The notes below the pieces were generated by a model. The model did no database searches, had not been told where the DNA came from, and worked only from the letters and a program-made list of their open reading frames with translations. Made by a program: the position numbers and the translations under genes. A DNA stretch of 64,000 nt from NCBI RefSeq assembly GCF_003334785.1, contig NZ_QOWV01000010.1; one strand, 5' to 3'. The DNA is from Escherichia coli. GTDB lineage: Bacteria; Pseudomonadota; Gammaproteobacteria; Enterobacterales; Enterobacteriaceae. Shown one piece after another: positions 20,927 through 21,026 of this stretch. Position 1 is the first letter of the stretch. Every line of letters starts with the position of its first letter.

Positions 20927-21026
20927 GCCGGATGCGGCGTAAACGCCTTATCCGGCCTACAAGATCCAAAGAAATCAGTAAATTGCAACACACATTGTAG
21001 GCCTGATAAGCGTAGCGCATCAGGCA
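20927..21026. repeat. REP/BIME element (two inverted REP units)
   Basis: GCCGGATGCGGCGTAAACGCCTTATCCGGCCTACA ... TGTAGGCCTGATAAGCGTAGCGCATCAGGCA read directly between livJ and panM. Confidence 0.9.

Follow-up and report, generated by a model that had tools for sequence, protein, structure and literature searches.

Four inverted REP pairs in a K-12-type Escherichia coli chromosome: strain-variable BIME-1 elements at transcription-unit ends and a folded spacer between ugpB and ugpA

Introduction

What is the pair of inverted palindromes that lies between livJ and panM in this stretch of Escherichia coli DNA, and do it and the similar pairs nearby mark the ends of operons, serve the genes beside them, or do neither? 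REP/BIME elements came to light in 1982-84, and textbooks describe how they act as 3' stabilisers of mRNA and as sites for IHF and gyrase. REP palindromes are thought to be spread by a REP-associated transposase, TnpA_REP (RAYT). An E. coli REP spans 30-40 nt and is imperfectly palindromic; its foot is a conserved GTAG/CTAC tetranucleotide, and its stem contains a mismatch or bulge (PMC3333891, PMC3479197); REPs paired in inverted orientation define a BIME (PMC3333891); and 355 REP elements have been annotated in E. coli K-12 MG1655 (PMC4550694).

We describe here four such pairs, which we number sites 1 to 4. The explanation that we consider probable for the whole set is that all four belong to the REP/BIME family, that three of them are dispensable BIME-1 elements, and that the remaining one, site 3, favours the message of ugpB.

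Results and Discussion

The window and its genes

The window, by which we mean the whole stretch of 64,000 nucleotides that was analysed, is a piece of K-12-type E. coli chromosome in reverse orientation relative to MG1655. All regions of it that we queried are 100% identical to K-12-type strains, and a 1-kb query around site 1 matched MG1655 and many other strains with 100% identity. The gene order was taken from annotated genomes, and the genes that matter for the analysis are the following:

livJ, 19764-20867, + strand
panM, 21055-21438, - strand, convergent with livJ
livKHMGF, + strand, livF ending at 26698
ugpB, 27097-28413, + strand
ugpA, 28511-29398, + strand
glgP, 52064-54511, + strand
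yzgL-like ORF, 54628-54921, + strand
glpD, 55127-56632, - strand, convergent with the yzgL-like ORF

The window is K-12-like, yet it is not the MG1655 reference, since its yrhA lacks IS1E. The IS1E copy that interrupts yrhA in MG1655 is absent at 35217/35218, where its two MG1655 flanks adjoin directly, and the window has no IS1 sequence anywhere. Its absence accounts for a 777-nt offset (768-nt IS1 plus a 9-nt duplication) between coordinate mappings based on livJ and on glpD. Two further features were noted in passing. The gene for the small RNA RyhB (37658-37722, + strand) is the sole match in the window at the Rfam gathering score, with 83 bits. Direct repeats of 71-72% identity (19751-20050 with 21849-22148, and 20736-20871 with 22840-22975) are simply the paralogous binding-protein genes livJ and livK.

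Eight REP units form four inverted pairs

REPs were detected with short head and tail motifs and then with a hidden Markov model (HMM) built from the eight units, each unit being oriented by convention from its head, GCC..., to its tail, ...CTAC. The window contains eight REP units in all, forming four tail-to-tail pairs, and every one of them lies between annotated genes. A preliminary description of this DNA had placed paired inverted REP units after livJ (site 1), after livF (site 2), between ugpB and ugpA (site 3) and after glpD (site 4). Its coordinates proved right to within 1-3 nt, and the gene coordinates bear out the context that it gave. It had also called the four sites operon boundaries; this holds for sites 1, 2 and 4, which lie at the ends of transcription units, and not for site 3, which lies inside ugpBAECQ.

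The units match the REP consensus, as had been supposed. With two mismatches at most, the REP core CTTATCMGGCCTAC occurs eight times in the window, seven of these within REPs, against an expected 0.51, and none of 100 shuffles reached eight. The 34-nt units of sites 1, 2 and 4 differ at 1, 2 and 5 of 32 positions, respectively, from the y REP oligonucleotide that was co-crystallised with TnpA_REP (sequence from PMC3479197). All eight units fold as bulged hairpins and seven have the CTAC foot, the exception being the unit at 28424-28452, whose tail is CTGG. When searched across the window, the eight-unit HMM retrieved just those eight (E <= 4.5e-6); the next match had E = 0.63, implying that no REP in the window was missed.

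Repeats of this kind are abundant, in tens of copies per genome: queries containing these REPs matched a median of 11 to at least 40 places per genome, and did so in every one of 5426 complete E. coli genomes. The RefSeq record NC_000913.3 has no annotated REP repeats, and Rfam holds no family for these REP/BIME elements. All four sites are ordinary E. coli REP/BIME repeats, a kind of element already known. As in REPINs, the doublets mobilised by RAYT, the REPs are inverted with respect to each other, and they have the GTAG/CTAC foot and the bulged stem that binding by TnpA_REP requires (PMC3479197). Unlike the case of those doublets, there is no RAYT gene within the window; the evidence on mobility of these particular copies is their population polymorphism. 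The finding of REP/BIME elements is in itself correct but ordinary, and the modest interest that remains lies in the ugpB-ugpA spacer, within E. coli and across species.

Sites 1, 2 and 4 are BIME-1 elements

The three boundary elements are built from the following parts, mismatches being counted against the y REP oligonucleotide:

Site 1, y-type REP of 34 nt, 20927-20960, + strand, 59 nt after the livJ stop, 1/32 mismatch
Site 1, long (L-type) linker, 20961-20996, with the IHF-like core AATCAGTAAATTG at 20973-20985
Site 1, z-type REP of 29 nt, 20997-21025, - strand, 29 nt from the stop of panM, the convergent gene
Site 2, z-type REP of 29 nt, 26760-26788, + strand, 61 nt after the livF stop
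Site 2, long linker, 26789-26824, with the IHF-like core ATTCAACATATTG at 26800-26812, - strand
Site 2, y-type REP of 34 nt, 26825-26858, - strand, 2/32 mismatches
Site 4, y-type REP of 34 nt, 54966-54999, + strand, 44 nt after the stop of the yzgL-like ORF, 5/32 mismatches
Site 4, long linker, 55000-55034, with the IHF-like core ATTCAATATATTG at 55012-55024
Site 4, z-type REP of 29 nt, 55035-55063, - strand, 63 nt after the stop of glpD, which is on the - strand

Each of the three sites thus combines one 34-nt y unit with one 29-nt GCCTGATGCGCTACGCTTATCAGGCCTAC-type unit, tail to tail, in single copy and with no tandem repetition. The 29-nt units are the short z form and are probably z1 REPs. 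The three elements can be aligned over their whole length, including the 35-36-nt linker, with a mean column identity of 88%, and sites 1 and 2 together form a 117-nt inverted repeat that is 84% complementary. All three linkers carry, at the same aligned position, an IHF-like core with one mismatch to WATCAANNNNTTR; one-mismatch matches to this pattern occur window-wide at 62 per 128,000 positions. The y REP hairpin of site 1 folds on its own with -21.3 kcal/mol.

A BIME-1 element consists of a y and a z1 REP in inverse orientation, occurs in single copy, and has a conserved L linker in which an IHF site is often present; such elements are also called RIB or RIP, and are described as located at the 3' ends of transcription units (PMC3333891). 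IHF binds the BIME-1 linker (Boccard and Prentki 1993, as cited in PMC3333891). Sites 1, 2 and 4 resemble this description in composition, in single copy, in the IHF-like core of their linker, which is conserved and about 36 nt long, and in their 3'-end position. We found no structural difference; IHF binding at these three copies is a prediction from sequence. The earlier account can therefore be refined: what stands at each of the three boundaries is a BIME-1 (RIB/RIP) element in single copy, with a putative IHF site in its linker. The main text of the IHF ChIP-seq paper makes no mention of REPs.

All three occupy the 3' ends of transcription units, namely the gap between the convergent livJ and panM, the end of livKHMGF, and the gap between the convergent glpD and yzgL-glgP. 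The y REP of site 2 also lies about 100 nt upstream of the ugp promoter region, where there is a promoter-like match at 26961-26989. At each of the three sites a smaller hairpin is found between a stop codon and the BIME:

26715-26734, + strand, terminator-like hairpin GGGAGUC-AAAA-GACUCC followed by UUUGAG, between the livF stop and site 2; z = -2.9
55086-55111, - strand, hairpin without a U tract, between the glpD stop and site 4; z = -2.75
20876-20894, + strand, small hairpin without a U tract, after the livJ stop; the fold of the region overall is not significant (z = -0.3)

As DNA, sites 1, 2 and 4 would provide an IHF site. As RNA, their strong stem-loop would stop 3'-to-5' exonucleases after read-through or Rho-dependent termination; REPs have been reported to define the stable 3' ends of Rho-terminated RNAs (PMC6061677).

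Boundary elements vary among strains

We surveyed the presence of the boundary elements in the 5426 complete E. coli genomes, using 351-nt queries centred on sites 1, 2 and 4 and a threshold of at least 80% query coverage. Site 1 was present by this measure in 3748 genomes, site 2 in 4630 and site 4 in 2130. The K-12 arrangement of livJ and panM was missing, at the same coverage, in about 1680 of the 5426. One example is strain RUT3575, which has no REP at this place; a canonical intrinsic terminator comes after livJ, along with an ataR-ataT toxin-antitoxin module (L132:355-1300). In 7 of 14 spread-sampled genomes ataT is annotated in the livJ-panM gap, which corresponds to 20868-21054 of the window.

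The region downstream of glpD (window 54922-55126) comes in at least two haplotypes. The one found in K-12 and O157 has the yzgL-like ORF and the BIME-1, which is retained in O157:H7; the other has a compact hairpin after the same glpD stop and an ORF of about 200 amino acids. Strains Ec55 and OW1E2 have no BIME; there the glpD stop is directly followed by a compact hairpin resembling a terminator, with a different ORF as neighbour (L130, L131). Identity at the glpD 3' end is bimodal, at least 99% in 1865 genomes and 90-95% in 2753. What follows livF in other species is either a species-type REP pair or a plain terminator.

The boundary BIMEs are dispensable, for at the livJ and glpD sites other E. 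coli have either a plain terminator or an ataRT module. Those at livJ and glpD are strain-variable accessories and not obligatory markers of gene ends.

This variability is what would be expected if all four elements were neutral selfish DNA, that is, doublets mobilised by RAYT/TnpA_REP that are tolerated at 3' ends and in long spacers and have no host function. The boundary BIMEs are polymorphic for presence and absence within E. coli, where the alternative alleles work with plain terminators, and TnpA_REP cleaves and recombines BIMEs in vitro (PMC3333891). The ugpB-ugpA site, too, is dimorphic. We return to this explanation, which we regard as doubtful for the set of four, with the evidence from that spacer.

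Site 3 is an atypical pair inside the ugp operon

Site 3 consists of two short units:

28424-28452, + strand, degenerate REP of 29 nt, starting 10 nt after the ugpB stop, with a GTC... head and a CTGG tail
28461-28489, - strand, second REP of 29 nt, its stem y-like and its loop short; it ends 21 nt upstream of the ugpA ATG

The two are separated by an 8-nt linker that lacks an IHF-like core and lie in the 97-nt ugpB-ugpA spacer of ugpBAECQ. This is the only long spacer in the operon, in which ugpA and ugpE overlap and ugpE and ugpC abut. The preliminary description had recognised the ugpB-ugpA copy as internal to an operon in the classic layout, and the arrangement is the same as that of malE-malF (PMC5927463). 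One compensatory change, together with changes to G-U, keeps the stem of the degenerate REP intact. No U tract accompanies the E. coli REP pair, and the ugpA Shine-Dalgarno sequence, AGGA at 28497-28500, lies outside the REP hairpins in the predicted fold.

Consisting of two 29-nt units in a single pair, site 3 fits neither BIME-1 nor BIME-2 and is therefore an atypical BIME. A short inter-REP linker is shared with BIME-2 arrays, which are made of y and z2 REPs with short linkers in tandem copies and are gyrase targets. Unlike those arrays, site 3 is a single pair in which both units are 29 nt long, with a short loop and no long z2-type unit.

The sense RNA of site 3 has a minimum-energy fold of -50 kcal/mol (z = -6.7), and the antisense RNA one of -38.3 kcal/mol; owing to G-U pairs, the sense strand is the more stable by 10.7 kcal/mol. 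In the minimum-energy fold of K-12 the two REPs pair with each other in one long helix. As a conserved structure this inter-REP helix was rejected: in an alignment of 14 species it was 90.8% paired, and 204 of 500 shuffles did as well. Two separate REP hairpins, in contrast, had 95.6% of cells paired in the same alignment, with four compensatory pairs, and none of 500 shuffles was as good. The conserved structure of site 3 is thus the two hairpins, since these show covariation and the inter-REP helix shows none beyond that of shuffles. The stem covariation could equally reflect species-specific turnover of REPs at the DNA level, TnpA_REP being known to recognise the hairpin (PMC3479197), and so it is no proof of selection on the RNA.

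Two spacer alleles in E. coli

The site 3 REP pair is present in 5105 of the 5426 complete E. coli genomes. In 318 of them the K-12 spacer (28414-28510) is replaced by another allele, a GC-rich palindromic element of about 160 nt, CCCTCACCCTAACCCTCTCCC...GGGGAGAGGGCCGGGGTGAGGGG (L004:465-625), whose sequence is unrelated to the REP pair and whose RNA folds at -87 kcal/mol. A query made of this element and its ugpB and ugpA flanks matched 1-4 places per genome, and the element's only match in Rfam was a spurious one below threshold. Its arms may resemble Box C. The Enterobacter cloacae spacer contains an element of the same kind, CCCTCTCCC...GGGAGAGGG.

Two individual strains depart from these alleles. 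In LH10-b-1 a deletion has removed the 3' end of ugpB and the first REP, so that the C-terminus of UgpB is altered and only one REP precedes ugpA (L005:350-430). SCPM-O-B-8794, which is labelled E. coli, combines a Citrobacter-type first REP, GCCGGGTGGAGGCTGCGCCTTACCCGGCCTAC, with an Escherichia-type second REP (L046).

A folded spacer is kept across genera while its sequence is replaced

We next consider the same spacer in other species, each represented by one genome that was scanned with a DNA pattern based on a conserved peptide of UgpA. Usable spacers numbered 107 and came from 36 genera. The spacers have a median length of 100 nt and a minimum of 15 nt, and 106 of the 107 are at least 52 nt long. 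Their median minimum free energy is -46 kcal/mol, with 96% at -20 kcal/mol or below; the median z-score, calculated against mononucleotide shuffles and over species that are not phylogenetically independent, is -4.2, with 87% below -2. The sense strand folds better than the antisense in 64 spacers and worse in 42 (Wilcoxon p = 0.003, species again being non-independent).

In spite of this shared folding, the spacer sequences are often mutually unalignable and their filling differs by lineage. Species-specific REP pairs fill the spacer in Escherichia, Citrobacter, Salmonella, Klebsiella, Raoultella and Lelliottia, and in the first three of these genera the ugpA-proximal REP is far more conserved than the ugpB-proximal one. 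In Pantoea, Pluralibacter, Hafnia, Edwardsiella and an alphaproteobacterial metagenome-assembled genome (MAG) the spacer has simple GC hairpins, frequently accompanied by a T tract. Single-linkage clustering of BLAST matches gave 44 components, which is only a rough count of spacer families, since many genera were merged through shared flanks such as the ugpA ribosome-binding region.

In this respect site 3 contrasts with the boundary sites: a folded spacer is kept across 36 genera while the sequence that forms it is replaced. The explanation that all four elements are neutral and merely tolerated has difficulty with this observation. Tolerance alone hardly accounts for 106 of 107 spacers of at least 52 nt and 96% of them at -20 kcal/mol or better; the folded spacer also occurs in lineages with simple hairpins that are not repeats (Pantoea, Hafnia, Edwardsiella and the alphaproteobacterial MAG); and folding of the sense strand is favoured. 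The near-universal, strongly folded ugpB-ugpA spacer in Enterobacterales thus favours a functional reading. The conservation of predicted folding supports a selected intercistronic stem-loop at ugpB-ugpA, as at malE-malF, and lends modest comparative support to the classic model of binding-protein excess at ugp.

It is quite possible, though we would stop short of calling it probable, that ugpB-ugpA constitutes a selected 'structured-spacer slot', refilled across Enterobacterales by unrelated palindromes, whether REP pairs, the ~160-nt element or terminator-like hairpins. If this were true, the two E. coli alleles would be a natural experiment on how mobile palindromes, once landed, are recruited to set the stoichiometry of binding protein to channel.

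How site 3 might favour the ugpB message

REP hairpins block 3'-to-5' exonucleases and stabilise the upstream mRNA. Site 3 would be transcribed within the ugpBAECQ mRNA as very stable hairpins immediately after ugpB. By analogy with malE-malF, and in keeping with the conservation of the folded spacer, these hairpins would, once the mRNA has been cleaved downstream, shield the ugpB segment from exonucleases that degrade from the 3' end, and they may additionally attenuate transcription into ugpAECQ. Either way, the message for the binding protein would outlast that for the membrane and ATPase subunits.

Stabilisation of the binding-protein gene, with protective structures at its 3' end, has been described for malEFG and for four further ABC operons (PMC5927463). 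Site 3 resembles the stabiliser of malE-malF (and of hisJ-hisQ) in the ABC-transporter operons of E. coli/Salmonella in being a REP pair between the first gene, which encodes the binding protein, and the genes for membrane components. As at malE-malF, a strong stem-loop in the mRNA sense lies immediately 3' of the gene whose product is needed in excess, that of site 3 being a predicted fold. The two differ in that the ugp REP starts just 10 nt past the stop and in that its units are short, at 29 nt, one of them being degenerate. The operon list of PMC5927463 includes ugp, which the supplementary text that we searched does not mention otherwise; it may not have been expressed under those conditions. 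In a phoB study, six previously determined PhoB-regulon genes were in the differentially expressed set, and ugpB was the only one of the five ugp genes among them (PMC7657598), a weak and indirect hint. Our literature searches for ugp and REP, which were dominated by unrelated matches, found no direct data on ugpB versus ugpA mRNA levels or half-lives.

The short distance between the ugpB stop and the REP raises the possibility of an opposite effect. According to Liang et al. 2015 (summarised in PMC12306157), a gene is translated less when a REP lies less than 16 nt from its stop codon. Site 3 might then mainly lower UgpB output, its hairpin stalling the terminating ribosome and so leading to mRNA cleavage and tmRNA tagging, the mechanism of Liang, Rudd and Deutscher; the REP would act against the binding-protein cistron, or tune it, instead of favouring it. 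With ugpB ending at 28413 and the REP starting at 28424, the 10-nt gap is within the reported range, and site 3 is alone among the four sites in this: the distances elsewhere are 59 or 29 nt at site 1, 61 nt at site 2, and 44 or 63 nt at site 4. By a rough measure, the folded region likewise starts within a few nucleotides of the ugpB stop in most other species. We nevertheless think this explanation improbable. A purely negative element that is conserved would be odd, because binding-protein genes are generally the more highly expressed partner (PMC5927463), and we found nothing in the literature on such an effect at ugpB specifically. Lowered translation would, in any case, not be exclusive of mRNA stabilisation.

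Attenuation, which we include above as a possible addition to protection of the ugpB message, might instead be the main function of site 3. Rho-dependent partial termination associated with the BIME, and not decay, would then cut read-through into ugpAECQ. BIMEs can indeed attenuate transcription (Espeli et al. 2001, as cited in PMC3333891 and PMC6061677). Furthermore, sequences resembling an intrinsic terminator, loosely defined as a hairpin with a T-rich tract behind it, are present in 46 of 108 spacers of other genera, those of Pantoea stewartii, Pluralibacter and the alphaproteobacterial MAG being clear cases, and in the sister operon livKHMGF a GC hairpin and UUU come right after livK. 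The E. coli REP pair itself has no U tract, which makes intrinsic termination unlikely there. Attenuation as the main function seems to us rather unlikely, and protection of the ugpB segment from decay is the reading that we prefer.

The livK-livH spacer of the window deserves a brief description of its own. It is 47 nt long and contains a GC-rich hairpin at 22980-23000, in which CCGCCCGCA... pairs with ...UGCGGGCGG and which is followed by UUU (z = -2.9). The order of binding-protein gene, hairpin and permease gene is that of ugpB-ugpA, and it is achieved without a REP.
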